A DNA stretch of 64,000 bases from Patescibacteria group bacterium (GTDB lineage Bacteria > Patescibacteriota > Minisyncoccia > Phycocordibacterales > PALSA-1337). Where the stretch lies: assembly GCA_038065395.1 (NCBI GenBank), contig JBBTRB010000004.1, positions 6,042 to 70,041 of the forward strand. Reading direction: 5' to 3'. Below are positions 1 through 45,400 of the stretch, piece after piece (within the stretch, counting starts at the first letter, position 1; each line of letters opens with the position of its first letter). Under the pieces are notes generated by a model. That model searched no databases. It had not been told where the DNA came from and worked only from the letters and a program-made list of their open reading frames with translations. The position numbers and the translations under genes are program-made.

Positions 1-29
1 CCATCACCATAGGAAGTGCTTTTAGAGAT

Positions 30-3000
30 TTGGAAATACAGACTCGAGACGTCATCTTCTCAACTGGAGTGGGTGCAGCCACTGAAGCAATGCGTCTTTT
101 GAATACCGGTAACCTCGGTGTGGGTACATCTTCTCCATACGCCAAACTCTCCGTAGTGGGTGAGATCGTCGGTGCATACTTCACTGCTACCACCACAGCT
201 ACATCAACATTCGGGGGTTCACTGGCAGTGACCGAAGCAAACGCAACCTCTACCTTCGCAGGAGGTATTGATCTCTCTGATGGATGTTTCGCTCTCGATG
301 GTGTGTGTATTGGGGCGGGTAGTGGTGCTGGCACAGTCAACTCTGGAACCCTCGGCCAAGTAGCATTCTATGCAGCGAACGGTACTGCAGTCTCTGGTAC
401 CTCGACACTCATTCTCCTCGATGAGAAGGTGGGTATTGGAACTTCATCTCCATGGGCCACCCTCGCAGTCAACCCAGTAGCAGGCCTTGCCGCTAACCAA
501 TTCGTCATAGGTTCATCTACCGCAACTGCTTTCATTGTTAACAATAGTGGGAATGTGGGGGTTGGTACGTCGAGTATAAAGAGTAAGCTCGCTATTCAGA
601 GAACGGATGGAAGTCACGTGGAAGTTTTCCCTAATTCTGGCGATTTACTCGAAATATATCAGGCTGCCGATGAAATTCGCGCTCTTCATATTGATTCGGA
701 TGGTAATACTACCATTGCAAATAGTGTCGGAAACATGTTCACTTCATCTGGTTCATCGGTCTCACTTGCGGCAGTCAATGGAATAGCACGTTTCTTCATT
801 GATACTACAAGCAACGTCGGCATCGGCACCACCTCCCCATACGCCAAACTCTCCGTAGTGGGTGAGATCGTCGGTGCATACTTCACAGCCACAACCACAG
901 CTACATCAACATTCGGGGGTTCACTGGCAGTGACCGAAGCAAACGCAACCTCTACCTTCGCAGGAGGTATTGATCTCTCTGATGGATGTTTCGCTCTCGA
1001 TGGTGTGTGTATTGGGGCGGGTGCAGGATCGGGGACTGTCAATACAGGAACAGCAGGATACTTTGCATACTATCCAGCATCCAACACTACTGTAGATGAT
1101 CAAACAGTTCTCAATATTTCAGGATCTAATATAGGTATTGGTACATCGTCGCCATATGCAACATTGTCAGTCGTAGGTCAAGTTGTCGCATCACATTTCA
1201 ATGCTACATCAACTACAGCAACTTCAACGATCGCCAACGCATTGATTATTGGCAATTCGAACAATCTTAATGCTGATACGATCCCTCTCAGGATCAATAG
1301 TAATCAAACGAGCTTGGAATGGTGGACAGAATTCTCTGGAACTTCAGATGATCAGATCAAGATAGGTCGTGATGCGGCTACGGGACATGCGAAGATCCAG
1401 GCATTCAGAGACAACTCAGTCCACTCTCTCCTCCTCAACCCTGCTGGCGGTAGAGTCGGAGTCGCTACCACATCTCCTTTTGCCCGCTTCGCCATCAACC
1501 CACTCGCAGGAGACCTCTTTGCTTTCGCTATCGGTTCATCCACAAAGTCGCTTCTTGCTGTGTCCACTGAAGGATTTGGCACAACTACTCTTGCGGGTCT
1601 CAATATCTCAGGTCAAGCAACATCCACCTCGAACGTTGGATTCAATATCTCAGCGGGATGTTTTGCTATCAACGGCACCTGTATATCAGGTGGTGGTGCA
1701 GGATCTGGAACAGTCAACTCTGGTACTATCGGTCAAGTAGCCTTCTACTCAGCAAACGGCACTGCAGTATCTGGAACTTCTACCCTTATCCTTCTTGATG
1801 AGAAGGTGGGTATTGGTACGTCGTCACCATACGCAAAGCTCTCTGTTGTCGGGGAAGTTGTAGCACGTAACTTCACTGCTACGTCGACTACGGCGACCAC
1901 GACACTCGCAGGAGGCTTGCATGTGAACTCGGGTGCATTGGTAACAAACTTCTCGACAGGAGTTACTACCATCAGTACTCTTGAAGCCGGTAACTTCAAC
2001 TTCGAGGATAATGCAGGTATCAATAGTTGGGCAGATCTGACAGTCACATCTTCTGCTCCGGTTGATACTCCGCAGGGTTACATCGCATTCCTTGATGGTA
2101 ATCCTATGTTCTCGATATACGGAGAGTCGAATGGTACAGGTGTAGTGAAGAAGACTGCGGTGGGTATTGGAACATCGACTCCGTTCGCGCTCCTCTCTGT
2201 GCAAAATAATGCATTTGCTGCTTCTAGTACGTACAGTGTCTTCATTGCCTCATCAACTGCTGCATTTGCTACAACTACACATTTTGCGATCACAAATACA
2301 GGTAATGTCGGATTCGGTACATCTTCCCCATGGGCAACTCTCGCAGTTAACCCATCTGCAGGCTTTTCCTCTAACCAATTCGTCATCGGCTCATCAACAG
2401 CAACCAGCTTCCTCGTCACCAACAGAGGATTCGTAGGAGTAGGTACAACCTCACCATCTGCCCGCTTCGCCATCAACCCACTTGCAGGTGACCTCTTCGC
2501 CTTCGCTATCGGCTCATCTACCAAATCACTTTTGTCAGTATCAACCGAAGGATTTGGCACAACCACTCTCGCAGGGCTTGATATCTCTGGTCAAGCAACA
2601 TCTACCTCTAACGTTGGATTCAATATCTCAGCGGGATGTTTTGCTATCAACGGCACCTGTATATCAGGTGGTGGTGCAGGATCTGGAACAGTCAACTCTG
2701 GTACTATCGGTCAAGTAGCCTTCTACTCAGCAAACGGCACTGCAGTATCTGGAACTTCTACCCTTATCCTTCTTGATGAGAAGGTGGGTATTGGTACGTC
2801 GTCACCATACGCAAAGCTCTCTGTTGTCGGGGAAGTTGTAGCACGTAACTTCACTGCTACGTCGACTACGGCGACGAGTACGTTTGCAGCTACGACAACC
2901 GTGACTAATCTCCTTGCTAACAAGTTCGTAGATACCAACCAGAGTCGCTGGTTGTCATTGGCAGAGCTCGGTGGTAACCGTGGCTTCGGTCGATTTACCC

Positions 3001-6000
3001 AGTACAACCCAACAGTTGCGACTACCTCGTTCCATGCACCGACGAACTATTATCTCGCCACATCGACATTGAATTTGAGTTCATCTCGCTCGACGAACGA
3101 TTCGGGTGCCACATACAACCCTGTCAACAACTCGATCCTGATGATCAACAATAGTAACCTCATTTACGAGCATGATCTCGATGGTAAACTCCTCCGTACT
3201 ATCACCCTCGTCGGATTTGCTGATACAGAGTCTCTTGTCTGGATGTATGATGATATGTTTGCGATCGGCGAAGAATCGGCAGGTATGGGTATCAACTTTG
3301 GCCTCCGTATTCCGAATGGTACAACGACGATCAATAGAAACCTTGCTACACGTATAGACCTTACAGGTACGTTCGGTACTTCGAACCAAGGTGTCGAAGG
3401 TCTAGCATACGATCTCGATCGAGATGTCTTCTATATCGGTATCGAAGGCACAGGAGATACCATGAGTGTCTACACAGTTACTCGTTCAGGTGCGGTATCC
3501 GTAACGTTCTCAACATCAACATGGGCAGCTGCCGACATTGGTGATATTTCGGATCTCTACTATGACCGCAATACCGGACATATGTTCGCCGGAGTTGACC
3601 AGTGTAATGGTGAAGCCAACGGACCAGCATCGACGTTGTGTGACGGTATGATCGAGATCGATATGACGACAGGTGCGATCATCGACAAGATACATGCCCC
3701 TGCTGGCTTTAGTCAGGTTGAGGGTATCGGCTTTACTCCAGATGGACGTCTGATGTTCATGACCAGTGAAGGAGACATGTTCGCCAAATACATCGCCCAA
3801 GACCGTGGCACACCATTCTCCTTCGTCCAGTTCGCATCATCCACACCAGTCAACCTCAGTGTTCTCACTAACATCGGAGTAGGAACATCTACACCAGAAT
3901 ACGGCATCACAATCGCCACATCTACCAAGTCACAACTGGCCCTCTCTGCAGGTGCAGGTATCGCACAATGGGCATTCCGTAATGCAGGAGGTAATCTCTA
4001 TCTCAGTACCACTACTGTACTTGGTACAGCTACTACCTCTATCTCTGCCCTTGAAATCGCAGGAGATGGCTTCGGTACTACTACCCTTCGAGGTCTCAGT
4101 ATTCTCGGTCAAGCTACCTCTACCTCTAACGTCGGCTTCAATATCACGTCTGGCTGTTATGCAGTCAACGGTACTTGTGTCGGTGGTGGAGGTGTCGGTG
4201 GTGGATACTCAACCGTTCAAGATGAAGGCTCAGGTCTTGCTGCTCGATCCATCCTCAACTTCCTTGGCACTGGGGTGAGTTGCGTGGATGACGGTGTTGA
4301 TTCCACTGACTGTACGATCACTGCCGGTGCAGGATCGATGGCAATCGGTTCATCGGTGACAAGTGGAACGTCAGGTTCAGTCTTGTTCGTTGATAGTGGT
4401 GGTTTATTGGCTCAAGACAACAGTCATTTCTTCTGGGATGAGACGAACAACCGTCTCGGCCTCGGTACTACCTCGCCATACGCCAAACTCTCAGTGGTTG
4501 GTGAAGTCGTAGCCTCACACTTTACAGCAACATCTACCACTGCTACGAGTACATTCGCAGCTACGACAACAGTTCGCAATATAGTCTTCAATGGCAAACT
4601 AGTAGACACCAACCAGAGTCGCTGGTTGTCATTGGCAGAACTTGGTGGTAACCGTGGTTTCGGTCGCTTCACTCAGTACAACCCGACAGTTGCAACTACG
4701 ACATTCCACCCACCAACGAACTATTATCTCGCAACGTCTACGCTCAATTTGAGTTCTGTGACAGCCTCTAACAACTCTGGTGTCACCTATAACCCTGTTA
4801 ACAATAGCTTGTTCTTCATAAACAACAGTAACTTCATCTACGAACACGACCTTGATGGTAAGCATATACGTACTATTACCCTGGCAAACTTTACCGACAC
4901 GGAAGCATTGGCTTGGATGTATGATGATATGTTCGTGATCGGGGATGAGCAAGGAGGTCGCATAACGTATCTCCGTCTCCCGAATGGCACAACGACAGTC
5001 AACCGCAACGTAGGTACTACCATCTCCACATCAGCGACTTTTGGTGTGGGCAACTCGACTATCGAAGGCGTCACCTACGACCTCGATCGAGATGTCTTCT
5101 ATATCGGTATCGAGGGTTCTGGAACTGGTGCAGGAGTATATACGGTCACGCGTTCGGGTACGATCACGGCGACATTCTCTACCTCAACCTGGCAGACTGC
5201 CAACATTGGAGATGTATCAGACCTCTACTATGACCGCAACACTGGACATATGTTCGCCTCCGTTGACCAGTGTTACGGTGAGTCCAACGGTGTTGCGTCT
5301 ACGCTCTGTGACGGATTCATTGAGATCGATATGACAACAGGCGCGATTATTGACAAGATCAGTGCGCCATCAGGATTCTTCCAGGTCGAAGGTATCGGAT
5401 TCACTCCAGATGGACGACTCATGTTCTTGGATGGAGAAAACGACATGTTCGCCAAATACATCGCCCAAGACCGTGGCACACCATTCTCCTTCGTCCAGTT
5501 CGCATCATCCACACCAGTCAACCTCAGTGTTCTCACTAACATCGGAGTAGGAACATCTACACCAGAATACGGCATCACAATCGCCACATCTACCAAGTCA
5601 CAACTGGCCCTCTCTGCAGGTGCAGGTATCGCACAATGGGCATTCCGTAATGCAGGAGGTAATCTCTATCTCAGTACCACTACTGTACTTGGTACAGCTA
5701 CTACCTCTATCTCTGCCCTTGAAATCGCAGGAGATGGCTTCGGTACTACTACCCTTCGAGGTCTCAGTATTCTCGGTCAAGCTACCTCTACCTCTAACGT
5801 CGGCTTCAATATCACGTCTGGCTGTTATGCAGTCAACGGTACTTGTGTCGGTGGTGGAGGTGTCGGTGGTGGATACTCAACCGTTCAAGATGAAGGCTCA
5901 GGTCTTGCTGCTCGATCCATCCTCAACTTCCTTGGCACTGGGGTGAGTTGTATCGATGATGGGGTAGACTCTACCGATTGTACGATCAATACGTCTGCAG

Positions 6001-8753
6001 CATCTCTCTCCATCGGATCTGCTATCACCGGTGGCACACCAGGATCTGTCCTCTTCGTCGATGCAGGAGGTCTTATGGCACAGGACAATGCTGCGTTCTT
6101 TTGGGATTACACCAACGACAGACTCGGTCTCGGTAGCTCGACTCCATACGCAGCACTCTCGGTCGTCGCAAACGGTACCGCACCAAAATTCGTAGTCGCA
6201 ACATCAACTACTGGGGACAACCAACCACTCCTCTTCGTCAACGGTACAACGACAGGGGCACTCGACTGGGCACGTGTAGCGATCGGTACCACTACGACAT
6301 GGGGTGCAGAGTCGGGCCTCCGTGACCAGTTCACCGTGGCAGGCCGTATATATAGTACCTGGCGTGAGATGAGGTGTGACTTCCCGGGAGCGAGTTTGAC
6401 TGCACAGATAACTGCGACTACACCGAACTTCTGTGGAGGGTTCGCTTATCAGCCTGATACCTCGGGTCGCATGGAAAGTCCAGTGACTGTACAGGGAAAT
6501 GCAAACTATTCTCACAACCCACACGTGTTGCGTCTCATCTCCGGTGGAACAACAGACGCCTCTGCTTCGGGCGCTGGTGCCGCTATACGTTCGATCACTA
6601 CATTCTTTGCAGCCTCTTCGAGTCCAACGTTCGAGGTAGTTTCTCGCCTCGGCACATCGACTCAGGCATCGTTCTGGACAATGGCTTCTAGTTCTATTTA
6701 CATGATCGGTTTCCATAACATAACTGCAGGTACGGGTGGTGATGTATCTGTTATTCCTACAAATGCCATTATGTTCGTGGCAACCACGACAACCAACTGG
6801 ATAGCCCTCGTGCGTAATAACAGTACGTATACTTCATATGTCAACACAGGTGTCCCTACCACCACCTCACCAAACATTGCATTCAATCGTTTTCGTATTG
6901 AGGCGAATCAGAATGATGTCACGTTCGTGATCAATGGTAAGGTCGTGTCAAAGCTTGTAAGTAATGGCTCAAATATCCCAAGTACAAACCTCGGATACAT
7001 CATATCTGCCGGATCAACGGCTGCTGGTCGTGGCAAGACCATGGAAATCTCGCAGATACGTCTCTGGGTTGACGATCCGACTGGCGGAGGGATCTCAGAA
7101 GGTTTGCTCGCTGCTGCAAGTGACATGTCGGTCAAGAAAGAAGAAGACGAAGTCACCTTCGAAGATGTGCTGGGGGGATATAATTCTTCTGCAGAATCCG
7201 CCAATAGCATAGAGTATATGGCGAGAGACGCGCGTATGCTCGGTGAAGGAACTCTCGTGTCACTATCCACAACTACGGGTGAAGTAGTACAGAGGGCCCA
7301 AGGCACATACGATCCGTCACTATTCGGTGTAGTGAATATCTCGAGTGTACAGACGTTGGGACATATCAACGAACATACGGTAAAAGTTGCAACGGCCGGA
7401 AGAACGTACGTGCGCGTTAATACCGAAAACGGGCCAATAGTACCAGGAGATTACCTCACTTCTTCTTCTGTAGATGGAGTCGCTATGAAGGCGACAGGTG
7501 CAGGTCAGGTCATCGGACGAGCTATCGAAAAGTTCGACAAGGTTGGTGAGGAAGGACTCATCGTAACAACAGTTGAGCCATCCTATTATGTAGGTAATAC
7601 ATTCGCACTCAACTCTCTTGGCAACATGACAGCGCAGTCGTTCGCTTCACTCACTTCAAAATCTTTCGTAAAGGATGTTGAATATCTCACCGCATCGAGT
7701 ACCGAGACATTGGTAGGTGGTCTCGTTAGTATCAAGGTGTCATATTATAGAGATGTATCCGCAGCTTCGACGTCACCATTGCAGCTCGGTCTGATCACCG
7801 AAGATGTTCCATCTGAGATCAGAACCGCAGATGGGAAGCAGGTAGATCTGCTCAAGCTCTCGGCACTGATCGTGGCTGGACTCCAAGAGCAGAAAAAGAA
7901 GCTTGATGGTCTCCATATAGATACGGTTAACAATGAGCTCGTACTGAGCAAAGCTCTACGAGTAACCAGTATGGCCACATTCGGCGGAGGGCTCACGGTC
8001 GACAGTATCAGTTCTATCGGCACCAGTCTCACATTCAACAACGATACCGTATTCTTTGGCCGACCATACTTCAACACTGACACTGCAGGATTCGCAGTCA
8101 TCGGAGAGGGTGCACGAGATGTAGAAGTAGTATTCGATAGTGAGTATCTCGAACAGCCGATCGTCAACGCATCTATCGCACTCGATGATATAGGTGACGA
8201 AGATCAGGTTGCTGCAGTTTCCGAAGCATTGTTCGATCAAGATATCAGATTCCTGATCACCAAGAAGAGTGTCAAAGGATTCACGATCATCCTCAACAAG
8301 CCGGCACCACGAGATGTTCAGTTCAGTTGGATAGCCTTGGCAGTCAAAGGGGCACGAACTGCAACATCGAGTCAAGTTCAGAATCTACCTGTAGAGGAAG
8401 ACGAACAGGATCCTCAGGTTCCTGAGATCGAGATCGTCCCAGATCCAGATACACAGCCAATAGACGACACTCCGCCTCCTTCAGAAGAGGCGACGACAAC
8501 CATATCAAATGGGGAAGATGATCTTGTGACACCGCCCGTAGCAGAAGAAGAGTCGACTCAGGGAGATCAGACAGGATCGTCCCAAACAGAGGAAGAAGTA
8601 CCACAACCTGAGCCTGTTATAGAAACAGAAGATGCTCCTGAGCCAGAGGTGCAACAGACACCAGAAACATCTCAGGACTCATCAGCTGAAGATACTCCTG
8701 TGGCGTCTGATGATACAGGAGACTCGGATGAGAACGAACCAACCAATCCTTGA
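30..8753 (+). CDS. Giant (2907 aa or longer) Gly/Thr/Ser-rich repetitive surface fibre protein. The reading frame is open to nt 1, so the gene may start upstream of the window; the track uses a TTG start at 30. Contains many VGIGTSSPYAKLSVVGE-type repeats, two ~330-aa beta-propeller-like modules, an S74-intramolecular-chaperone-like domain (nt ~7600-7910) and an acidic Pro/Glu/Asp-rich C-terminal tail.
   Basis: Single uninterrupted frame. Large intragenic near-identical repeats at 136-320/838-1020, 1631-1880/2612-2877, ~2880-3900/~4555-5560 and 3781-4275/5449-5943. The motif GLITEDVPSEIRTADGKQVDLLKLSALIVAGLQEQKKKLDGL resembles the Peptidase_S74/endosialidase chaperone domain of phage tail fibres. 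Confidence 0.75.
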   Translation: MEIQTRDVIFSTGVGAATEAMRLLNTGNLGVGTSSPYAKLSVVGEIVGAYFTATTTATSTFGGSLAVTEANATSTFAGGIDLSDGCFALDGVCIGAGSGAGTVNSGTLGQVAFYAANGTAVSGTSTLILLDEKVGIGTSSPWATLAVNPVAGLAANQFVIGSSTATAFIVNNSGNVGVGTSSIKSKLAIQRTDGSHVEVFPNSGDLLEIYQAADEIRALHIDSDGNTTIANSVGNMFTSSGSSVSLAAVNGIARFFIDTTSNVGIGTTSPYAKLSVVGEIVGAYFTATTTATSTFGGSLAVTEANATSTFAGGIDLSDGCFALDGVCIGAGAGSGTVNTGTAGYFAYYPASNTTVDDQTVLNISGSNIGIGTSSPYATLSVVGQVVASHFNATSTTATSTIANALIIGNSNNLNADTIPLRINSNQTSLEWWTEFSGTSDDQIKIGRDAATGHAKIQAFRDNSVHSLLLNPAGGRVGVATTSPFARFAINPLAGDLFAFAIGSSTKSLLAVSTEGFGTTTLAGLNISGQATSTSNVGFNISAGCFAINGTCISGGGAGSGTVNSGTIGQVAFYSANGTAVSGTSTLILLDEKVGIGTSSPYAKLSVVGEVVARNFTATSTTATTTLAGGLHVNSGALVTNFSTGVTTISTLEAGNFNFEDNAGINSWADLTVTSSAPVDTPQGYIAFLDGNPMFSIYGESNGTGVVKKTAVGIGTSTPFALLSVQNNAFAASSTYSVFIASSTAAFATTTHFAITNTGNVGFGTSSPWATLAVNPSAGFSSNQFVIGSSTATSFLVTNRGFVGVGTTSPSARFAINPLAGDLFAFAIGSSTKSLLSVSTEGFGTTTLAGLDISGQATSTSNVGFNISAGCFAINGTCISGGGAGSGTVNSGTIGQVAFYSANGTAVSGTSTLILLDEKVGIGTSSPYAKLSVVGEVVARNFTATSTTATSTFAATTTVTNLLANKFVDTNQSRWLSLAELGGNRGFGRFTQYNPTVATTSFHAPTNYYLATSTLNLSSSRSTNDSGATYNPVNNSILMINNSNLIYEHDLDGKLLRTITLVGFADTESLVWMYDDMFAIGEESAGMGINFGLRIPNGTTTINRNLATRIDLTGTFGTSNQGVEGLAYDLDRDVFYIGIEGTGDTMSVYTVTRSGAVSVTFSTSTWAAADIGDISDLYYDRNTGHMFAGVDQCNGEANGPASTLCDGMIEIDMTTGAIIDKIHAPAGFSQVEGIGFTPDGRLMFMTSEGDMFAKYIAQDRGTPFSFVQFASSTPVNLSVLTNIGVGTSTPEYGITIATSTKSQLALSAGAGIAQWAFRNAGGNLYLSTTTVLGTATTSISALEIAGDGFGTTTLRGLSILGQATSTSNVGFNITSGCYAVNGTCVGGGGVGGGYSTVQDEGSGLAARSILNFLGTGVSCVDDGVDSTDCTITAGAGSMAIGSSVTSGTSGSVLFVDSGGLLAQDNSHFFWDETNNRLGLGTTSPYAKLSVVGEVVASHFTATSTTATSTFAATTTVRNIVFNGKLVDTNQSRWLSLAELGGNRGFGRFTQYNPTVATTTFHPPTNYYLATSTLNLSSVTASNNSGVTYNPVNNSLFFINNSNFIYEHDLDGKHIRTITLANFTDTEALAWMYDDMFVIGDEQGGRITYLRLPNGTTTVNRNVGTTISTSATFGVGNSTIEGVTYDLDRDVFYIGIEGSGTGAGVYTVTRSGTITATFSTSTWQTANIGDVSDLYYDRNTGHMFASVDQCYGESNGVASTLCDGFIEIDMTTGAIIDKISAPSGFFQVEGIGFTPDGRLMFLDGENDMFAKYIAQDRGTPFSFVQFASSTPVNLSVLTNIGVGTSTPEYGITIATSTKSQLALSAGAGIAQWAFRNAGGNLYLSTTTVLGTATTSISALEIAGDGFGTTTLRGLSILGQATSTSNVGFNITSGCYAVNGTCVGGGGVGGGYSTVQDEGSGLAARSILNFLGTGVSCIDDGVDSTDCTINTSAASLSIGSAITGGTPGSVLFVDAGGLMAQDNAAFFWDYTNDRLGLGSSTPYAALSVVANGTAPKFVVATSTTGDNQPLLFVNGTTTGALDWARVAIGTTTTWGAESGLRDQFTVAGRIYSTWREMRCDFPGASLTAQITATTPNFCGGFAYQPDTSGRMESPVTVQGNANYSHNPHVLRLISGGTTDASASGAGAAIRSITTFFAASSSPTFEVVSRLGTSTQASFWTMASSSIYMIGFHNITAGTGGDVSVIPTNAIMFVATTTTNWIALVRNNSTYTSYVNTGVPTTTSPNIAFNRFRIEANQNDVTFVINGKVVSKLVSNGSNIPSTNLGYIISAGSTAAGRGKTMEISQIRLWVDDPTGGGISEGLLAAASDMSVKKEEDEVTFEDVLGGYNSSAESANSIEYMARDARMLGEGTLVSLSTTTGEVVQRAQGTYDPSLFGVVNISSVQTLGHINEHTVKVATAGRTYVRVNTENGPIVPGDYLTSSSVDGVAMKATGAGQVIGRAIEKFDKVGEEGLIVTTVEPSYYVGNTFALNSLGNMTAQSFASLTSKSFVKDVEYLTASSTETLVGGLVSIKVSYYRDVSAASTSPLQLGLITEDVPSEIRTADGKQVDLLKLSALIVAGLQEQKKKLDGLHIDTVNNELVLSKALRVTSMATFGGGLTVDSISSIGTSLTFNNDTVFFGRPYFNTDTAGFAVIGEGARDVEVVFDSEYLEQPIVNASIALDDIGDEDQVAAVSEALFDQDIRFLITKKSVKGFTIILNKPAPRDVQFSWIALAVKGARTATSSQVQNLPVEEDEQDPQVPEIEIVPDPDTQPIDDTPPPSEEATTTISNGEDDLVTPPVAEEESTQGDQTGSSQTEEEVPQPEPVIETEDAPEPEVQQTPETSQDSSAEDTPVASDDTGDSDENEPTNP

Positions 8754-8766
8754 TGCCCAAGAAATA

Positions 8767-9777
8767 TTATTTTAGGGCACTTACTTGTTTGAGGGCTTCT
8801 TGATATACGACTTTTGAGAGGAGACTTGCAACATCGGACGCCTTATCCATATCTGTGCCACGTGTCATGATACAGATGAGATATGGGTGATAGGGGAGGT
8901 ATACGATACCGCAATCATGAAATTGTTTAATGTTGGAGGAGTCTGAATATCGTTCGCCAAACTTGTGTGAGACAACAGTGTCTCGAGGTAGATATTTCGT
9001 GATGCCTTTGTCGAACTCTGTCTCCGAAAGGGTAGACAGTAGCTCCTCGGAATTATGCTTACTCAGATATGATGCATTGAACAATACACGGAAAAAAGTC
9101 GCATAGTCTCTCACGTTCATAAAGTCCGCATCGCTACTCTGGGGCAGAGAAAGATGAAGATCCTCGAGTAACTTCCTGAAGCCGTCTTTCTCTGTAGCAA
9201 AAACCAGGGCTTCGGCCGCTTTGTTGTCTGAGTGTTTGATGCTGGCTTCGAGGAGTTTACGGATAGTGTGTGCCTTCGTGAGGTCGATGGATTGGGATGG
9301 TTTGAAATGCTGTTCAAAATCGATAGTCTGTAGGTCTTTGTTCGGAGGAATGATCGAGTCAAGGAGACCAGGTATTTCCTCTGATCTCTTGTAAAAATAC
9401 ATTGCAAGGGGAACTTTCATGAGCGAAGCGGGGAAGAAGTTTTCCTTCTCATTGATACCGAGCCACGGGCCGTTGTTGAGGTCACGATAATACACAGATG
9501 CATGAGTAATATCACGAGATGCCACTTTCTCCGTGATGACCTTCTCTAAAACTTCTTTGGAGGGACGTATGGTGTTTTGGGCGATGTAGTCTTGGCCGAA
9601 ACTGCATTCGAGCAATGGGTTCGTGAAAGAGGATTCAAGCGGATTCTCGCGAGATTCGTTGTAGGAACTGTATTCGCCGATAGAGTTCCTGAGCGCATGG
9701 CCTCTCCCTAGATAGAAAGCACCAATACCAACCAGGATAGGTAATACGACGAGAATAATGCGTGTATTCATGGTCAT
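8767..9777 (-). CDS. Membrane-anchored serine hydrolase, class A beta-lactamase-like fold (possible DD-peptidase or beta-lactamase-related protein)
   Basis: N-terminal TM helix; S-x-x-K (ASLMKV), S-D-N (HSDNKAA) and K-x-G (HKFGE) motifs with class-A-like spacing. Confidence 0.5.
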   Translation of the reverse strand: MTMNTRIILVVLPILVGIGAFYLGRGHALRNSIGEYSSYNESRENPLESSFTNPLLECSFGQDYIAQNTIRPSKEVLEKVITEKVASRDITHASVYYRDLNNGPWLGINEKENFFPASLMKVPLAMYFYKRSEEIPGLLDSIIPPNKDLQTIDFEQHFKPSQSIDLTKAHTIRKLLEASIKHSDNKAAEALVFATEKDGFRKLLEDLHLSLPQSSDADFMNVRDYATFFRVLFNASYLSKHNSEELLSTLSETEFDKGITKYLPRDTVVSHKFGERYSDSSNIKQFHDCGIVYLPYHPYLICIMTRGTDMDKASDVASLLSKVVYQEALKQVSALK

Positions 9778-9827
9778 CGAGTAGTATACTGTATAATGTA
9801 TTCATATACTATAATAATGTGAAGCTT

Positions 9828-10202
9828 ATGAAAAGCCCTGCATACACAAGAGGTTTCGTTGTTCCAATGCTCATCTTTGCCATTGTCGTTGTTTCTGGTA
9901 TCTCTTTTTATTTTTATCAGAGAGCGAGCAGAGACCCGCAGACTCGAGTCAAACAAGATGCGAGCAAACTCCTGGCAGAAATAGGTGCCATTGTGCTGTT
10001 GCCAACAGATGAGGAGCCGACCATCGCGACCATCACTGACCCAGAGAAACTCAAGGATCAAGTATTTTTCGCCAATGCCAAGCCTGGCTACAAGGTGCTG
10101 ATCTATGCCAAAGCTCGTAAAGTGTTTTTGTACGACCCTGTAGGCAAGAGGTTGATCGATGCTGCCCCTCTCTATTTTGGAGACGAGCCACTCGATAGCT
10201 AA
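9828..10202 (+). CDS. Small membrane-anchored protein, paralog 1 (N-terminal TM plus conserved C-terminal domain TVATITDPEKLKDQ.FFANAK.G.KVLIY..ARK.FLYD)
   Basis: Track ORF 9762-10202 trimmed to the Met before the TM segment (MKSPAYTRG...) to avoid overlap with the convergent gene. Near-duplicate of the next gene. Confidence 0.5.
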   Translation: MKSPAYTRGFVVPMLIFAIVVVSGISFYFYQRASRDPQTRVKQDASKLLAEIGAIVLLPTDEEPTIATITDPEKLKDQVFFANAKPGYKVLIYAKARKVFLYDPVGKRLIDAAPLYFGDEPLDS

Positions 10203-10257
10203 CAACCCCTATTGATTTGTATTGGCATGGTGTATAATAGTTCCAATATTAAGAATA

Positions 10258-10662
10258 ATGAGTAACATAATGAATAACAAGAAAATCATAGGCATTGTAG
10301 TAGCGGTCATAGTCATTGCTATTATCGGATTCCTCGTATACAAGAAAGCGCCAGCTTCAACTCCTGCAGACCCAAATACCGCAGAAGCTCAAGCTGAGAT
10401 GGAGGCGATCGTCGCAAAAGTCGGCAAGCTCATCGACCTCCCAACGGGCGAGAACCCAACGGTTGCAACTATTACCGACCCAGAGAAGCTCAAAGATCAG
10501 CCATTCTTCGCCAACGCAAAGTCTGGCCACAAAGTCTTGATCTATCCTACCGCTCGCAAGGCGTTCTTGTACGACGAGTCTAGGAACAAGCTCATCGAAG
10601 TTGCTCCACTTATCCTCGGTAACCCAGACCAGTTGACTAATACTCCTACATCAACCCAATAA
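10258..10662 (+). CDS. Small membrane-anchored protein, paralog 2 of the preceding gene
   Basis: Shares TVATITDPEKLKDQpFFANAKsGhKVLIYptARKaFLYDe...LIEVAPL with paralog 1. Start taken at MSNIMNNKK inside track ORF 10222-10662. Confidence 0.5.
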   Translation: MSNIMNNKKIIGIVVAVIVIAIIGFLVYKKAPASTPADPNTAEAQAEMEAIVAKVGKLIDLPTGENPTVATITDPEKLKDQPFFANAKSGHKVLIYPTARKAFLYDESRNKLIEVAPLILGNPDQLTNTPTSTQ

Positions 10663-10678
10663 GAGTTGATACTCTTGC

Positions 10679-11464
10679 ATGTATAGAGCCTTCCTCATCA
10701 TCATATCTCTCGTGGTTATGGTGCCGCACGGTAGTTTTGTCCATGCGGAGGAATACACTTCTTCGAGCTATACAGTATTGCATCCCGTGCTCACGCCAGC
10801 AGGGTTCGGCACCTCAGGTTTGTATCGGATGTGGGGGAGTCTGACCGAGATCGCTATCGGTACCAGTACAGCCACAGATTATAGTGTACAGTCAGGCTTT
10901 CTCTACTACCCAGAAGTGACCGTGCCAGTCGTATCTCCTACGGCCGGCGATGCCCAAGTGACCCTTTCGTGGACTGCCGCGCAAGGGTTTTTGGGTTGGA
11001 CAGCGACCTCATATAGAGTAGGTCAGTCGACTGTCTCTGGAGGCCCGTATATCTATACTTCTGTAGGAGGGGTACTTTCTTCGATACGAACAAGTTTGAC
11101 CAACGGAACTCCTTATTATTTCGTCATTGTGGTCAACGATGCATATGGTAGTCCGATCGGCACATCGACCGAAGTCACCTCAACTCCTGTAGCAGGCACA
11201 ACACCTACTCCTGGAGACGGAGGGGGTGGTGGAGGTAGTACCTCTTATTTCGACTACATACTCGGTACCAACGTGTTCTGTTCGATTGAGGGTGACGGGG
11301 AGCATAGAGGCGCTGATCTCAACCGTGACGGAAGGGTGAACCTTGTTGATCTCAGTATCTTGCTCTACCATCTCGGCAGATTTGATCCACGATATGATTG
11401 TAATTCTGACGATAAGGTCGACTTCGTAGATATTTCTATCATGTTCTATCATTGGACAGAATAA
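10679..11464 (+). CDS. Secreted protein with an FN3-like middle domain and a C-terminal type-I dockerin (two calcium-binding repeats, nt ~11315-11443)
   Basis: Signal peptide. ADLNRDGRVNLVD and DCNSDDKVDFVD match the dockerin D-x-N-x-D-G-x-V-N-x-x-D repeat. Confidence 0.6.
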   Translation: MYRAFLIIISLVVMVPHGSFVHAEEYTSSSYTVLHPVLTPAGFGTSGLYRMWGSLTEIAIGTSTATDYSVQSGFLYYPEVTVPVVSPTAGDAQVTLSWTAAQGFLGWTATSYRVGQSTVSGGPYIYTSVGGVLSSIRTSLTNGTPYYFVIVVNDAYGSPIGTSTEVTSTPVAGTTPTPGDGGGGGGSTSYFDYILGTNVFCSIEGDGEHRGADLNRDGRVNLVDLSILLYHLGRFDPRYDCNSDDKVDFVDISIMFYHWTE

Positions 11465-11472
11465 ATACTCTC

Positions 11473-12366
11473 ATGAATATTCACAAAATCACTACATCTA
11501 TACTCTTGCTCGTAAGTGTATTGGTGCCCATTCATACACTGAGCGCGCAGGCCAATGCCAACACGTCTCCTCGAATATACATAGAAGCACCTACGCGAGT
11601 TTCTGTGGGTTCAGAGTTCGTGGTGAAAGTATTGGTTGATAGTGAATCGCCGATCAATGCTATGGAGATAGCACTCACCTATCCGGGAACATTCCTCAAA
11701 CCAAGTGCATTCAACGAGAGCTCGTCGATCATTCAGCTCTGGCAGGACAAAGACTGGAGATCAACACCAGGTAAGATCATGTTGAGTGGCGGCATACCGC
11801 GTGCTTTTGCAGGTAACAAAGGAGAGGTCGGACGTCTGACATTCAAAGCTGTTGCGCCAGGAGACGTCACTGTGTCATTTACCGTTGCGGATACCTATTA
11901 TGCTGATGGGTTAGGAACTCGTACTACTGCCCGTACGTCCCCTGTACGCTTGAGTGTTTTTGCTGTTACTCCAGGTTCACCACAGGTAATAACTACCACT
12001 GTGGTACAAGATGAGGCATTGAATTCAGATACGCAACCCCCAGTATTCGGCCTCACTGACACTCTACGTAACCCTTCCAAAGGCAATCATCTGGCTATTT
12101 TCGAAGTGAAGGATACTGGTTCCGGTATTGCCAAGGTGGAAATACGTACCAACTCTCTGGTGTCCTGGAGTGATTGGCATGAAGTGACCAATCCAGCCGA
12201 AGTCCGATCTGGAACTTTCAAGTATCAGTTGCGTGCCACTGACAACACGGGGAATATCACCGTCGAAACATTCTATATCCGTTCAAAACTCATCTTGATA
12301 CTGAGCATTGTTATACTCAGTTTTGCCTTCCTTGCTGGTGCAATATACTTTATAATTAAACGGTGA
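11473..12366 (+). CDS. Cohesin-domain protein with a C-terminal TM anchor
   Basis: Signal peptide, then VGSEFVVKVLVDSESPINAMEIALTYPGTFL...GEVGRLTFKAVAPGDVTVSF (cohesin-like beta-sandwich signature). C-terminal hydrophobic helix LILILSIVILSFAFLAGAIYFII. Start trimmed from track 11452. Confidence 0.55.
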   Translation: MNIHKITTSILLLVSVLVPIHTLSAQANANTSPRIYIEAPTRVSVGSEFVVKVLVDSESPINAMEIALTYPGTFLKPSAFNESSSIIQLWQDKDWRSTPGKIMLSGGIPRAFAGNKGEVGRLTFKAVAPGDVTVSFTVADTYYADGLGTRTTARTSPVRLSVFAVTPGSPQVITTTVVQDEALNSDTQPPVFGLTDTLRNPSKGNHLAIFEVKDTGSGIAKVEIRTNSLVSWSDWHEVTNPAEVRSGTFKYQLRATDNTGNITVETFYIRSKLILILSIVILSFAFLAGAIYFIIKR

Positions 12367-14387
12367 ACCTTCTCATCAAAGGCTATATAGTTTTTGTGGC
12401 AGTCTGTGCCATCTTCGTTGTCTCAGCTCTTCCTGTATCTGCGGCGCAACTTATCTTGTCACCAGCGAGTGGAACTTTCACGGTAGGGAGCACATTCGAT
12501 GTGTCGATATTCCTCGATAGTGAAGATCAGTCTGTCAATGTTGTCAATGCTGAGATTTTGTTCCCTCCAGACAAACTCCAGCTCGTTTCGCCTACAACTG
12601 GCCAGTCGATCATCAGTGTGTGGACTGCACAGCCTGTATTCAATAATAAAGATGGACTTATCCAGCTCACCGGCGGTATCCCTGGTGGGATCAAGGTTAG
12701 TCGAGGTCTGATCACGACATTGACATTCCGGGTCAAGCAAACAGGCAATCCTGTCCTTGTCCGTTTCTCCGACAAATCCACCGTACTTGCCAATGACGGC
12801 AAAGGCACTGCGGTTCTCAGTGGTTTCCAGAACGGTATCGTCAATCTGATATTGCCACCACCTGCTGGGCCAGTGGTTTCTTCGGAGACGCACCCTGACC
12901 AGTCAGAATGGTATTCCAACAAAAATGTCATCCTGCGTTGGGCAAGCGTCAATGCTGTAGAAAAATACAGCTATGTTATCGATAAGAATCCTGTAGGTAT
13001 TCCAGATAACATCGCCGATGGTGACAATGGTAGTGTGGTATACAAAGACCTAGAGAATGGTATTCATTATTTCCATATAAAGTCCCTTCGTGATGGAGCG
13101 TGGGGAGGTGTAACTCATTTCGGTATCAACATAGACGCCGAAGCACCTGCAGAATTCCCTGTAGAAGTCATCCCTTCGAGTCGTACATCGAGTAAAAACC
13201 AGATCATCAACTTCCTAACCACAGACTCTCTGTCTGGTATCGCATACTATGAAGTCAAAACCATACCTCTGAGTCAAGGCTCATCAGGTGAGCAATTGTT
13301 CGTAGAGACGATGAGTCCTCATCAGTCTGCACTCGATCTTGGTTCCTATGATGTCATTATTCGAGCGTATGACAATGCGGGCAACTATAGAGATGTGCAA
13401 CAACGCATCAAGATTGTTGCGCCGTTCCTCGAATTTGTAACGGATCAAGGTGTTCGTATCATTGGCGGGGCTATCATACCGTGGATGTGGGTGTGGATAT
13501 TGATACTCATTTTCATTCTCATCACAGCATTTCTGGCATGGTCTACTCGACGATGGCACCATGATATACACTCCAATCGCCAAAAGAGGATTTTGCCAGA
13601 CGCCCTGAAATCCCAACTTTCAGAATTGCAAAAATACAAACAAAAGTATGGCAGTCTGGCGATCCTGCTTGCTGTCGGAGTGTTGTCTTTGTTCGGCGGC
13701 AACGTGGCAGATGCTCAACAGAAGATAGAGCTTGCACCACCTTCGGTCTCCACAGTCTCACGTGATATTTCCAATGAAGAGATCTTCTATATCGGTGGTA
13801 ACACATTGTCACCACTTACCGAAGTCGTGATCTATCTGCAAAACATGCAAACTGGGGAGGCGGTCAGTGAGACCGTCACTTCTGACAAAACCGGCGAATG
13901 GTTCTATCGTCATCCGCGTTTCCTCTCTCCAGGCAACTACGTCTTGTGGACTCAAGGGAGATCCGGCGAGATCATGAGTCCTCCTGGTCCACAGATCGAG
14001 CTCAAAGTAGTTCAGACGGCGATACAGTTCGGTGGATCCCGCTTGAGCTATGAGACACTCTATCTCGGTCTTACTCTCATTTTGCTGTTCATCGTGATCC
14101 TCCTGGGCACCTTCATCATCTATCACGCGTATCATGGCAGGAAGAAACACAAGCTCTTCTGGAAAGAAGTCCGTGAAGCCGAAGAAGCCGTACGCAGAGG
14201 TTTTGCAGTGCTCAAGCGTGACATCGAAGCCGAGCTCTCTATCGTGCGCAAAGCCAAGCTCAGCCCATCGGTCCGCGAAGAGATCAAACAGCGAGAGATG
14301 CAACTTCTCGGCGATCTCGAGACGGTTCGTGGTCATATTGGCAAGGAGGTGTGGGATATTGGGCAGATCGAGCAGTCGTCGATGTAG
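12363..14387 (+). CDS. Large multi-TM protein with an N-terminal cohesin-like domain, FN3/Ig-like modules and a C-terminal cytoplasmic coiled-coil
   Basis: GTG start overlapping the upstream stop (GTGA). TFTVGSTFDVSIFLDSEDQSVNVVNAEILFPPDKL...GLITTLTFRVKQTG cohesin-like. Three predicted TM helices. Confidence 0.55.
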   Translation: MNLLIKGYIVFVAVCAIFVVSALPVSAAQLILSPASGTFTVGSTFDVSIFLDSEDQSVNVVNAEILFPPDKLQLVSPTTGQSIISVWTAQPVFNNKDGLIQLTGGIPGGIKVSRGLITTLTFRVKQTGNPVLVRFSDKSTVLANDGKGTAVLSGFQNGIVNLILPPPAGPVVSSETHPDQSEWYSNKNVILRWASVNAVEKYSYVIDKNPVGIPDNIADGDNGSVVYKDLENGIHYFHIKSLRDGAWGGVTHFGINIDAEAPAEFPVEVIPSSRTSSKNQIINFLTTDSLSGIAYYEVKTIPLSQGSSGEQLFVETMSPHQSALDLGSYDVIIRAYDNAGNYRDVQQRIKIVAPFLEFVTDQGVRIIGGAIIPWMWVWILILIFILITAFLAWSTRRWHHDIHSNRQKRILPDALKSQLSELQKYKQKYGSLAILLAVGVLSLFGGNVADAQQKIELAPPSVSTVSRDISNEEIFYIGGNTLSPLTEVVIYLQNMQTGEAVSETVTSDKTGEWFYRHPRFLSPGNYVLWTQGRSGEIMSPPGPQIELKVVQTAIQFGGSRLSYETLYLGLTLILLFIVILLGTFIIYHAYHGRKKHKLFWKEVREAEEAVRRGFAVLKRDIEAELSIVRKAKLSPSVREEIKQREMQLLGDLETVRGHIGKEVWDIGQIEQSSM

Positions 14388-42493: not shown

Positions 42494-45400
42494 TCAAAGA
42501 TTCTGTAATTCAACCACGAGGCGAACTTTCTCAAACTCTTGGGTATAACCCACCATCAGATCCGCGTCCGACGGATCTAAAGTCAGAGTCAATCGTTCCA
42601 TGGTCGTGACGAGAATCTGTTGCACTCGGGAACGAGTGATATTGTAGGTTTGTCCTAAGGCTTCATACGTCGGAGTTTCTTTTGTTGGGTCTCCTCCGAA
42701 ACGAAGCCGGAGGATATCCTTGTGGCGGTCTGGCACATCTAGTGCGTCGAGCTTGGCGTGGAGTCGTTGAACTTTTGCTTGGAAAGGTTTTACAATTTTT
42801 TCCACAATGCTTTTTAGTTCCTCAACCTGTTTAGGGAAAAGGATCTTCTGGCATTGTTTTATTTGTTGCAAATCTCCTCCATAAACATCCAGGCTATACT
42901 GACCTCGTATGAGTTTCAGTTTTGCTTGAAGGTCTGCATCAGTCTTCATTTCTTCCGCCATGCCACTGCAAATTACGGAAGCGCGACTATAATCACCGAA
43001 TCCGAAGATTTGCGCTACTTCCTGACACTGGACGTTGAAGTCAGTGCGCAGAACGTGCATCGCAAAACTTTTTGCACGAATCCGATATTTTTCCGGGTCG
43101 TCGGGTCTTGTATGTGACCTGGCGAACAGTTTCGACTTCTCGACGTCGAATGCTTGGCTCGTGAGAGTAAGGACTTGATCGACAATCGGAGAAGCTGCTT
43201 TTAATGCAGACTCTGCGGCCAGAGCAACTTGTTCAGGGTCAACTTGTTTTTCCTGTCGAAAACCGCACAAGGCGATGATTTTTTCGATCTCATCGGCAAG
43301 GGCAGTGTCCCTCTCAATCGCTTGTTTGAGCGACCGATGTCCATGCATGGCCGTCGTGTGGTCAGCGTAGTGGAGAGCCTGTCCAATTCCCACAAAAGAG
43401 GATTTGAGTTCCTCCCTCATGATATATGTGCAGACCCATCTTACCCAAACAACTTCGTTCGGGCGAGATTCACCGAGTATTATCTCTGGTGTTTTCCCAT
43501 AAACATCGCCGACAACTCGGATAATGTCTTCTGGTGTAGGCGTTCCTGGCTTGACCTCTGCGAGTTTGGCTTGAGGACGTCTTGGGGTAATTGTCACCCC
43601 TGGAATCATCTCTCCGCCACTTCTCTCGGCATCATCCTGGAATACGATTGAGACTTCATCCAAGATCAAGGCTTCGGCTGGAGTGGACAGATCGGCTTCA
43701 GCACATACGATGTTTTCAAGATCGTGGACGCGCTTAAGCTCCTCATTAAGTTTCTCTCGAGTCATTGCGATTCCGTGTTTCGCCAACTCCTGCCAGACCT
43801 TATCTTCCATTTGCTGAATTCGTGAGCGAGTCACTCCTCCCATTGCGGGGCGAATTGACTCGTGTGTATGATCTTCGGGATAACCCTCAAGGCCCCAGAA
43901 CATTTTGAATACCGTCTTGCAACGATCACTGATTGGCAGCGCTTTAATCGCCGCTAACAATGTTCTGATGTTCCGAGAGGCTATCTCCAAATCCTCCTTT
44001 GCTTCGAGAGCAGTAGAGGCAGAAGGGAAGCAGTTGTCCATGATGTGATCGCCGATGGTGACATCGCTGTCTTTCGACGAGGCACTGTAAGCCAACTCCT
44101 CCAAAGACACGACGGGAACTTTGAGTTGATGGAGAATCTTCTTCACCTTATCAACGTCTAGCTCCGCTCGAGCTGCCACTTCTTCAAGCGTCGGTTCGCG
44201 TTGCAGTTCCAATCCGAGCTCGCACGTTATCTTGAGGACCTTGTTGAGAGCCTCAATTGCGTGAACTGGCATCCGGATGATGTTCGTGAAGTTTTGGATC
44301 GCACGAGCGATATAGGATCTGATCCACCATGTCGCATACGTAGAGAAGTGAAATCCCTTTTCAGGGTCAAATCTCTCCGCTGCGACCATGAGACCCATAT
44401 TTCCTTCCTGAACAAGGTCGTCGTAGTCCAAACCTCGACCCATATAGTGCGCGGCGATTTTCATCGACAAGCGCAAGTTATGAACCACGATGGTGTTGCG
44501 GGCTTCGTAGTCGGCGTGCATGTGCCATCGGCGTGCCAATTCTAGTAGGTCCTGATGCTTCAGAAACTTATGGTTTTTGACGGCACTATAGTAAGGATTG
44601 CTGACTCCTGATTCACGATCGAAGATGAACTTCGGTATGAATTCTCCGTTCGGATCAGCATGCTCGCTTTCCTCGCCATCAGTTTCCTTATTCTCTTCCA
44701 GTTCGAGCAAAGCCTCTTTTGAAGGCTCTTCCGAAACAGTTTCGCTAATACCGGTTGAGTTGAACAAAGCCGGTAGCTTACCCCTGTTGGAGGATGGTGA
44801 TTCGGGGCGACGAGAGTAGGACGTCTCGGGACTGTGTGAATCTGGTTTTTTGTAATGAACCTCACCAATCACAATCTTGACATCGATGGCTCCCAGCAAC
44901 TGGGTGATCCAACGCATTGTTGTTCGTAACTTTGCATTGTCCTGCGAAATTTCCGCAGGGATGAGAGTTCCGATTTGCTGTGGCGAGATATGACCTTTCG
45001 CTTTGGCTGCCAGAAGAATTCCGAGAGAGTCAGGCACAAGGCCTTGCTCGCGCAAAATTTTGGCATTCAAGAAAGACGACTCGTGTCCTTCTCCTGCGTA
45101 TTGTGGTCCCTTAGCAGGAGCTAAGGGAGGAACAGTCTGTTCCTTGACCTTCGGTTGCGGTTTCGGCTTGATAGTCGGAACTGCAGAGGATTGGACAACA
45201 TGGTTATGTACGACGTTAAACGTGACGCTAATGTTGAGATTTTGCAGTATTTTTTTAATTTCCTGCAACACCCCTGCCATCTTGTTTCGGTCTTTCGCTA
45301 ACGCCGTGGAAATCATCTCACTGATTTCCTGAGGGGTGATGGTACCTCGTTCCTTGGCTCGGTTGAGAGTGTCCTTGGCAGTGGGCTTTAAACCCCATCT

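Follow-up and report, generated by a model that had tools for sequence, protein, structure and literature searches.

The Peptidase_S74 domain (PF13884) is known from phage proteins such as endoNF (3gw6) and the phage T5-type L-shaped tail fibre (8hqz) and, under the name of ICA (intramolecular chaperone auto-processing) domain, from MyRF (7dc3), a eukaryotic membrane-bound transcription factor. In MyRF the ICA domain is trimeric, S587 and K592 are the counterparts of endoNF S911 and K916, and the chain is cut N-terminal to the serine; S587A or K592A abolishes this cleavage, Y615 and Y617 contribute to it, and the coiled coil has a role in trimerisation of the domain (PMC8326128). Here we describe a divergent relative of these domains within a giant gene at the 5' end of a 64,000-nucleotide stretch of DNA from a Patescibacteria group bacterium (assembly GCA_038065395.1, contig JBBTRB010000004.1, positions 6,042 to 70,041, forward strand), which we refer to throughout as the window. 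The explanation that we consider, taken whole, to be somewhat better than an even bet is that the window encodes the C-terminal two-thirds of a surface protein of ~4,300 residues. This secreted, phage-tail-fibre-like protein would be exported by Sec and form homotrimeric fibres on the surface of a bacterium of the Patescibacteria (Parcubacteria-type) from groundwater at Hainich, and it would most likely be an adhesin.

Read from the N-terminus, the protein is composed of a probable signal peptide, encoded upstream of the window, a repeat stalk, two propellers, each followed by a stalk segment, an unassigned globular region, a barrel, and the divergent S74 domain with its coiled-coil helix; it ends in an H-type-lectin-like domain and a tail that is acidic and Pro-rich. 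The gene and its C-terminal domains, from which the argument starts, map as follows in window coordinates.

3 to 8753, forward strand: C-terminal 2,916 codons and stop of one giant gene (open frame; upstream continuation in contigs L001 and L004, introduced below)
7200 to 7592, forward strand: beta-barrel domain before S74, residues 2400-2530 (AF2 pLDDT mostly >90; Foldseek)
7653 to 7913, forward strand: divergent Peptidase_S74/intramolecular chaperone domain, residues 2551-2637 (homology, AF2, Foldseek)
7848 to 7958, forward strand: long alpha-helix closing S74, residues 2616-2652, presumed to form a trimeric coiled coil as in MyRF and endoNF (AF2 positions 85-121, pLDDT ~90)
7944 to 8372, forward strand: divergent H-type-lectin-like C-terminal domain, residues 2648-2790 (homologues, AF2, Foldseek)
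8373 to 8750, forward strand: acidic Pro/Thr/Glu-rich low-complexity tail of 126 residues, followed by the stop at 8751-8753 (translation)

The original prediction, made from the letters of the window without database searches, had placed an S74 domain at nt ~7600-7910 and had proposed a PF13884 search and structure prediction as checks. No direct Pfam match was obtained for the window sequence, since PF13884 gave nothing at E≤10 with the whole protein or with segments of 122-517 aa, and PDB sequence searches with the C-terminal 517 aa and with a 59-sequence profile returned chance or low-complexity matches only. Against PHROGs, a 130-aa S74 segment matched the C-termini of tail proteins, at positions 655-739 of 743 in phrog_372 (E 4e-4) and in phrog_18983 (E 8e-4). 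A phmmer search with residues 2540-2645 against 1.84 billion cluster representatives recovered 315 relatives at E≤1e-3, 50 of them at E≤1e-10, with E values of the S74 segment to its relatives running from 1e-16 to 1e-7. When the window segment was aligned with 42 of these relatives (alignment A3, 43 members), 41 of the 43 members matched PF13884 with a best E of 6e-9, the window segment itself not among them, and the A3 profile retrieved 8hqz_d from the PDB at E 8e-6 and MyRF 7dc3 weakly. AF2 run on the A3 alignment gave a pLDDT of 90.1 and a pTM of 0.72 with a terminal helix of ~37 residues; an earlier model, with two sequences over the S74 part, had reached pLDDT 40-70 there. The best PDB folds for the newer model were three chains of the MyRF ICA domain 7dc3 (probability ~1, TM 0.5-0.65), with endoNF 3gw6 scoring lower, and its top matches in BFVD (E down to 5e-5, TM up to 0.79) carry the labels 'Peptidase S74 domain-containing', 'Intramolecular chaperone auto-processing domain' and 'Chaperone of endosialidase'. 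The predicted S74 domain was thus borne out transitively, at about 7650-7915, and the structural check agreed with it in both confidence and best matches (the MyRF ICA domain and phage S74 proteins). Judged from this homology and the modelled fold, we conclude that the domain is a genuine but divergent S74/ICA domain.

The comparison with the described systems is instructive on both sides. Like its homologues in phage, the domain comes after a long tail-fibre-like repeat fibre and ends in a long helix; unlike them, it lies in a cellular chromosome, is internal with 279 residues after it, has a sequence that falls below Pfam detection, and has its Ser-Lys dyad and one active-site Tyr replaced by T/V/D. 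MyRF provides the best structural match in the PDB, the domain is internal in both proteins, and the helix that follows it, which drives trimerisation in MyRF (PMC8326128), is predicted to do so here. MyRF differs in that it keeps Ser587/Lys592 and cleaves, and in that its C-terminal part is a transmembrane anchor, where the window protein has a lectin-like domain and an acidic tail and no membrane segment.

The identity of the catalytic residues was compared across 149 aligned family domains, the best representatives of the 315 relatives, to which all family counts in this text refer. The serine is present in 147 of the 149, and the lysine, the tyrosine and the second tyrosine in 145 each. 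At these columns the window reads Thr2551 (nt 7653-7655), Val2556 (nt 7668-7670), Tyr2582 and Asp2584, its closest relative, P0001, reads V, V, Y and D, and further near-invariant positions are changed in the window as well (A68T, G82Q and Y86L, in segment numbering). Because the near-invariant Ser, Lys and second Tyr columns read Thr, Val and Asp, self-cleavage of the window S74 domain, which the original prediction had implied, appears doubtful.

An internal S74 domain had also been regarded as unusual, whereas in the family it is the norm: a median of 237 residues follows the domain, and fewer than 60 follow it in only 5 representatives. In typical relatives a coiled coil comes first, then a small domain with Cys residues and a DUF5011 Ig-like domain, and finally a tail rich in Pro and Thr; the named relatives are Parcubacteria/Patescibacteria proteins annotated as 'phage tail fiber-like', 'tail fiber domain-containing' or 'Peptidase S74 domain-containing'. 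The family comprises >300 clusters at 50% identity, with proteins of up to 7,920 aa. Relatives such as KKW10390.1, OGZ32702.1 and MDO8521160.1 share with the window protein the repeat stalk, the internal S74 domain, the coiled coil, a variable globular module and the Pro-rich tail. They differ from it in that most keep the dyad and in that they mostly carry the Cys domain and DUF5011 rather than an H-type lectin, the window's C-terminal domain occurring in 2 of the 149 only; the two propellers are found in the window protein only. One relative of window 7620-7937, P0062 (1,854 aa), has three S74 domains (residues 813-906, 1233-1315 and 1632-1713), each with intact Ser and Lys and sitting in repeated modules of ~400 aa; if all three cut, this protein would be a self-fragmenting polyprotein. 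When we searched the literature for giant Patescibacteria proteins of the S74 or tail-fibre-like kind, nothing specific came up, nor did any paper on the family.

The 279 residues that follow S74 in the window protein (2638-2916, fewer than the ~400 first estimated) consist of the helix end and a linker, a conserved domain of ~140 aa, and the acidic Pro-rich tail, which the original prediction had noted and which is a Pro/Thr/Glu-rich end of 126 residues in the translation. Nearly every homologue closes with a comparable tail. For the conserved domain, 58 homologues were recovered at E≤1e-3, most of them from Patescibacteria, and AF2 modelled it with pLDDT >90. Foldseek matched its residues about 2690-2790 to 2ccv, 4q56, 3wmp, 2ce6 and discoidins (probability ~1, target-normalised TM 0.55-0.57), which are H-type lectin folds (Helix pomatia agglutinin, H. 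aspersa agglutinin, SLL-2, discoidin). The homologue P0057 matches PF09458 exactly over the equivalent region (E 2.9e-9, 37 bits against a cut-off of 24), and four other homologues give sub-threshold PF09458 matches in the same region. As far as the predicted fold goes, residues 2648-2790 are a divergent H-type-lectin-like domain, which resembles the H-type lectins (2ccv, SLL-2, the C-terminal domain of discoidin) in fold and differs from them in escaping PF09458 and in being fused to a giant fibre. Of the lectin-domain homologues in alignment A1, just two, the window protein and P0001, include the S74 segment, which suggests module shuffling.

Two sets of proteins from outside the S74 architecture carry the same C-terminal end. 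The lectin-like domain and Pro-rich tail terminate a prepilin-type (N_methyl) protein, P0007 (394 aa), and they are found on DUF5011 Ig-like surface proteins of other Patescibacteria (P0018, P0023, P0027 and P0040); the pair appears, from these sequences, to be a shuffled surface-binding cassette, and its place on P0007 fits an exposed binding module. The barrel on the other side of S74, common to 38 of the 149 representatives, was matched by Foldseek to phage capsid decoration/cement proteins, to the phi29 gp8.5 head-fibre base and to the C-terminal auto-chaperone fragment of phi29 gp12 (3gqh). It is a second, unrelated phage 'assembly' fold adjoining S74.

The likely full extent of the gene was estimated from other assemblies. 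In the window, a single open frame (frame 3) runs from nt 3 to the stop at 8751-8753, giving 2,916 codons with no upstream end, and its first start candidate is a TTG at nt 30; the frame runs past the window edge, in keeping with the original prediction of one 8.7-kb frame that might be longer. Among the matches listed for the locus, which was looked up through the neighbouring beta-lactamase-like protein (8767-9777, reverse strand), are three places from three samples, of seven similar places. L001, the ENA contig Hain_H41_01um_R2_15 (249.6 kb, coverage 62, Hainich groundwater), matches the window and adds 1,233 further in-frame nt, which are all of its upstream bases, and the public gene calls for the giant gene extend to 3,615 aa. 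L004 (NCBI GCA_964357315.1, contig CAYHKE010000001.1, 761.7 kb) carries the same gene, and the 2.2 kb that precede the called start there are not empty. They contain an ORF, 3912-5801, that begins MANHYITTRRYRKLWLILAVIMMSSLFAHSFAFAASG, has by eye a Sec signal peptide with the cleavage mark between MANHYITTRRYRKLWLILAVIMMSSLFAHSFAFA and ASG, has the same fibre repeats as the giant gene, and enters a 100-N scaffold gap (5698-5797) sited in a repeated segment. This ORF and the gap lie about 4.2 to 2.3 kb upstream of window nt 1. Because a signal-peptide ORF with the same repeats runs into the gap, the full gene very probably has ~4,300 codons and starts ~4.2 kb 5' of window nt 1, and the public calls are truncated to 3,615 aa because the gap falls in a repeat of the gene. 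The window frame equals P0059 and P0209 except for 4 residues, and a deposited record of the protein, MEK7646376.1, bears the title 'SdiA-regulated domain-containing protein [Patescibacteria group bacterium]'. Its composition in the window (T 12.8%, G 11.6%, S 10.6%) is the Gly/Thr/Ser-rich one that had been reported. A pseudogene or non-coding stretch is ruled out by 8.7 kb without a stop and by a dN/dS of ~0.1 between paralogous modules.

The part of the fibre that precedes the barrel is built from the following segments.

3 to 2920, forward strand: tail-fibre-like Gly/Thr/Ser-rich repeat region (motif scan; PHROG)
2921 to 3773, forward strand: SdiA-regulated/YjiK-like beta-propeller module 1 (PF06977 E 1.3e-46; paralogue alignment)
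4595 to 5441, forward strand: SdiA-regulated/YjiK-like beta-propeller module 2 (PF06977 best stretch residues 1588-1752; 3qqz E 6.3e-5)
6300 to 7172, forward strand: globular region of uncertain fold, possibly a concanavalin-like beta-sandwich (weak; sub-threshold 3keto-disac_hyd, E 0.04-0.17)

The repeat region is marked by the motifs [VIL]G[VI]GT[ST]SP...L[SA]V and by Cys pairs of the form GCFA.NG.C, and it matches the PHROG tail-fibre families phrog_9942 (E 4.9e-9) and phrog_18345 (E 2.5e-8); a tail-fibre-like repeat of this kind is common to 96 of the 149 S74-family representatives. A scan with [VIL]G[VIFL][GA]T[STP][STN][PI] counted 14 repeats of the 'VGIGTSSPYAKLSV' type in the window, where 'dozens' of VGIGTSSP-type repeats had been announced. 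Two stretches of the window protein match the SdiA-regulated family PF06977 in Pfam (E 1.3e-46, 159 bits against a cut-off of 21), and when the whole protein was compared with PDB sequences, E. coli YjiK (3qqz, E 6.3e-5) was the one relative retrieved. The two propeller-like modules of the original prediction are thus propellers, although the unit around each is 556 aa (1,668 nt) and not ~330 aa. The fibre contains two clear copies of the YjiK domain, and whereas YjiK is a stand-alone protein, the propellers are here beads in a fibre. For the globular region, a PDB sequence search of 6150-7199 gave chance or low-complexity matches only, and the sub-threshold concanavalin-type match is the sole fold lead for residues about 2100-2390.

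Self-comparison of the window resolved three pairs of closely matching repeats within the gene.

132 to 320, forward strand: near-identical repeat copy, 98% to 834-1022 (self-comparison)
834 to 1022, forward strand: near-identical repeat copy, 98% to 132-320 (self-comparison)
1632 to 1897, forward strand: exact 266-nt repeat, copy 1, with a 56-nt patch at 1694-1749 that has 9 substitutions relative to another assembly
2610 to 2875, forward strand: exact 266-nt repeat, copy 2, with the same 9 substitutions at 2672-2727
3774 to 4282, forward strand: stalk segment that follows propeller 1, first copy of the exact 509-nt block (reproduced in L002 and L004)
5442 to 5950, forward strand: exact 509-nt block, copy 2 (reproduced in L002 and L004)

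Three pairs had been reported as 100% identical. The pair 3781-4275 and 5449-5943 (495 nt) is indeed identical and lies within the exact 509-nt block; 1631-1880 and 2612-2877 do mark an exact repeat, with the second pair of coordinates out of register; and 136-320 and 838-1020 correspond to copies that are near-identical, at 98% and not 100%. The 509-nt block sits in a 1.7-kb tandem duplication (2793-4483 and 4464-6151, unit 1,668 nt or 556 aa) that is 81% identical overall. In a codon alignment of the two modules, identity jumps from 0.56-0.80 to 1.00 at nt 3774 and returns to ~0.62 after 4282, the flanks of the block being 56-80% identical in 90-nt windows, and outside the block the two 556-aa modules have pS 0.69, dS ~1.9, dN 0.18 and dN/dS ~0.1. 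Because synonymous sites are near saturation outside the exact block, the tandem duplications read as old and under purifying selection; and because complete identity stops abruptly at old, diverged flanks, the 509-nt block reads as a recent patch of homogenisation or gene conversion and not as a recent duplication, which is ruled out by the dS of ~1.9. The 'very recent duplications' of the original prediction are on this evidence old modules with conversion patches, and the size variation it envisaged is absent among the available assemblies, which show no differences in repeat number. Taken as a whole, its observation was confirmed in part and its interpretation supported in part.

Variation between assemblies is concentrated in the 266-nt repeat. 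L002, from another sample (coverage 4), equals window 3377-12000 with one mismatch, both 509-nt copies included, and L004 differs from the window over 14.7 kb at 18 positions only. Of these, 9 substitutions fall at 1694-1749, in one copy of the 266-nt block, and the identical 9 recur at 2672-2727, in the other. In the proteins, both copies have the window variant (I/S) in P0209 and P0208, and both have L/A in P0059. Most changes of the alternative patch are silent, with 9 nucleotide changes giving 2 amino-acid changes and falling mostly at third codon positions, and the patch partly matches a third paralogous copy at window about 303-393. A diversity-generating retroelement was rejected as the source of the patch, given the mostly third-position, synonymous changes, the location of both copies in the coding strand and the sharing with the third copy. 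The mirrored pattern fits concerted evolution in two strains as well as a collapsed repeat node at which each assembly took up one of two real variants, and since the same 9 substitutions appear in both copies, assembler collapse may contribute to the 266-nt identity. As the mirrored patch shows, intragenic repeats that look '100% identical' should be treated with caution when the metagenome assembly is built from short reads.

The surroundings of the gene are those of a bacterium. Elsewhere in the window lie genes for DnaE, RpoB, IF-2, a sigma-70 factor, four tRNAs and two class II aminoacyl-tRNA synthetases, one of class IIb (D/K/N type) and one of the G/H/P/S/T group; upstream of the giant gene, L004 has a LexA-like S24 peptidase and a PemK toxin, and further neighbours are a class A beta-lactamase-like gene and oxidoreductases. 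Because the neighbours are housekeeping genes, the locus is bacterial chromosome and not prophage. No phage structural gene cluster was seen among the called genes up to 6 kb upstream (in L004) or among the large ORFs scanned over 55 kb downstream, and tblastn of the S74-plus-lectin region against 50,697 phage records gave no match. The class A beta-lactamase-family gene (8767-9777, reverse strand) is convergent with the giant gene, with 13 nt between the stop codons. Beyond it, a run of small and medium ORFs (9762-14387, forward strand) includes a dockerin-type match in ORF 10679-11464 and a 674-aa protein (12363-14387) with sub-threshold matches only, to an Ig-like (Big_13) and a membrane-protein (VTT) family; these ORFs may encode further surface proteins. 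In a 1,002-aa ORF farther away (42494-45502, reverse strand), residues 339-466 hold sigma-70 regions 2 and 3 and residues 924-971 hold region 4, with a DnaA C-terminal helix-turn-helix domain at residues 657-723 between the sigma regions; this sigma factor is unusually long and interrupted, possibly by an insertion or through a fusion.

The putative mechanism for assembly of the fibre would involve export by Sec, followed by trimerisation from the C-terminal end, in which S74 and its helix would nucleate the trimer and bring its three chains into register, in the manner of phage tail spikes and MyRF. Phage decoration proteins are trimeric, H-type lectins typically so, and trimerisation is suggested because the barrel, S74, the coiled coil and the H-type lectin are trimeric folds in known relatives. 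The outcome would be a long fibre with two propeller 'beads', in which S74, having lost the dyad, would probably no longer cut and would persist as a permanent trimer hub, with the downstream H-type lectin kept on the fibre for binding. The fibre would then probably serve to adhere to host cells or to glycan-coated surfaces, which fits the description of cultivated Patescibacteria as episymbiotic. Patescibacteria in general are thought to be attached to other cells, with type IV pili as the main attachment factor studied so far. Several points weigh against this picture. In the window protein we identified nothing that would anchor it to the cell, and its trimerisation, secretion and adhesion are predictions. 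The signal peptide was judged by eye and is parted from the called gene by the 100-N gap, whose true length the scaffold does not give. S74 membership rests on transitive homology and predicted fold because the domain's own segment falls below any Pfam threshold, and the C-terminal domain likewise lacks a PF09458 match in Pfam. The loss of cleavage, which makes self-cutting doubtful, is read from sequence only. Furthermore, each of the four Lys-lacking family members has a Ser and a Lys at the +1 positions, and the window has Ser2552 and Lys2557 there, which may form a dyad shifted by one residue.

If the dyad has indeed moved to Ser2552/Lys2557, an active S74 would, after the trimer has folded, cut off a fragment of ~365 residues, releasing S74, coiled coil, lectin and tail from the mature fibre. 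The S74 fold and homology, the Ser-x4-Lys spacing kept in SKSFVK, and the pairing of Ser and Lys at +1 in 4/4 Lys-lacking members, as against Ser at +1 in 8/145 others, speak for such an enzyme, and with the dyad conserved in ~97% of the family cleavage was probably the ancestral function. We nevertheless think an active domain unlikely, given that both dyad columns and one active-site Tyr have been replaced together, along with A68T, G82Q and Y86L; that Lys at +1 is common anyway (93/149), which makes it weak evidence of compensation; and that discarding a conserved lectin domain seems wasteful. A variant of this idea, a release switch like that of MyRF, would have the lectin and acidic tail hold the protein at the envelope while S74 controls release or maturation of the N-terminal fibre. 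An internal S74 with ~240 residues after it is the rule in the family, Pro-rich tails end nearly all homologues, and in MyRF the internal ICA domain parts a released N-terminal trimer from an anchored C-terminal part (PMC8326128, PMC3742443). Such a switch is, however, distinctly improbable for the window protein, which has no transmembrane segment, sortase signal or known wall-binding domain after S74 (translation, Pfam) and has lost the dyad; moreover, the lectin module at the C-terminus of the pilin-like protein would be exposed there and not anchoring.

A tail fibre of a prophage, tailocin or other phage-derived particle, instead of a cellular surface protein, might be suspected from the PHROG tail-fibre matches of the repeats and the S74 segment and from the phage-like folds of the barrel and S74 domains. 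We give this origin very little credence: the 6 kb upstream and 55 kb downstream showed housekeeping genes or surface-protein candidates in place of structural, packaging or lysis genes, the N-terminus has a Sec-type signal peptide, the 50,697 phage records yielded no tblastn match, and the contigs that carry relatives reach 0.76 Mb. That repeats are exactly identical raises a different concern, and it is an appreciable though less than even prospect that this identity is partly a product of assembly, the true copies differing by a few percent and one consensus node having been used twice; the assembled number of 1,668-nt or 978-nt units could likewise be wrong. The sole differences in 14.7 kb are mirrored at 1694-1749 and 2672-2727, every assembly has one and the same variant in both copies, the 100-N gap falls in a repeat of the same gene, and L002 and L003, from low-coverage samples, break inside or beside the gene. 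The 509-nt block, by contrast, is without a variant in any assembly, and by our reasoning all the unique flanks can be joined linearly in one way only, the assembled one. Either way, strong homogenisation is real, because an assembler cannot make identity from copies whose flanks are 56-80% identical with a dS of ~1.9.

The explanation that we favour remains that of a Sec-secreted, homotrimeric surface fibre with a divergent internal S74 domain. More tentatively, it may belong to a large, undescribed family of giant fibres in Patescibacteria in which S74 is the internal junction between the stalk and an exchangeable C-terminal module (H-type lectin, DUF5011 Ig-like or others); the intact dyad of most members would cut the parts from each other after trimer assembly, a bacterial analogue of the MyRF release switch, and in the window lineage a dyad that has been disabled, or has slid by one residue, would leave a permanent trimer hub with the lectin staying on the fibre. 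Databases already contain the protein, as well as relatives of it under tail-fibre-like or S74 labels, so the gain lies in interpretation and not in a new kind of system. For the evolution of S74 domains, a dyad intact in hundreds of relatives and apparently disabled here would provide a natural experiment on trimer-nucleating versus self-cutting functions. For the organism, the predicted fibre, giant, secreted and trimeric, with its propellers and a lectin at the tip, would be a concrete candidate adhesin for host attachment.

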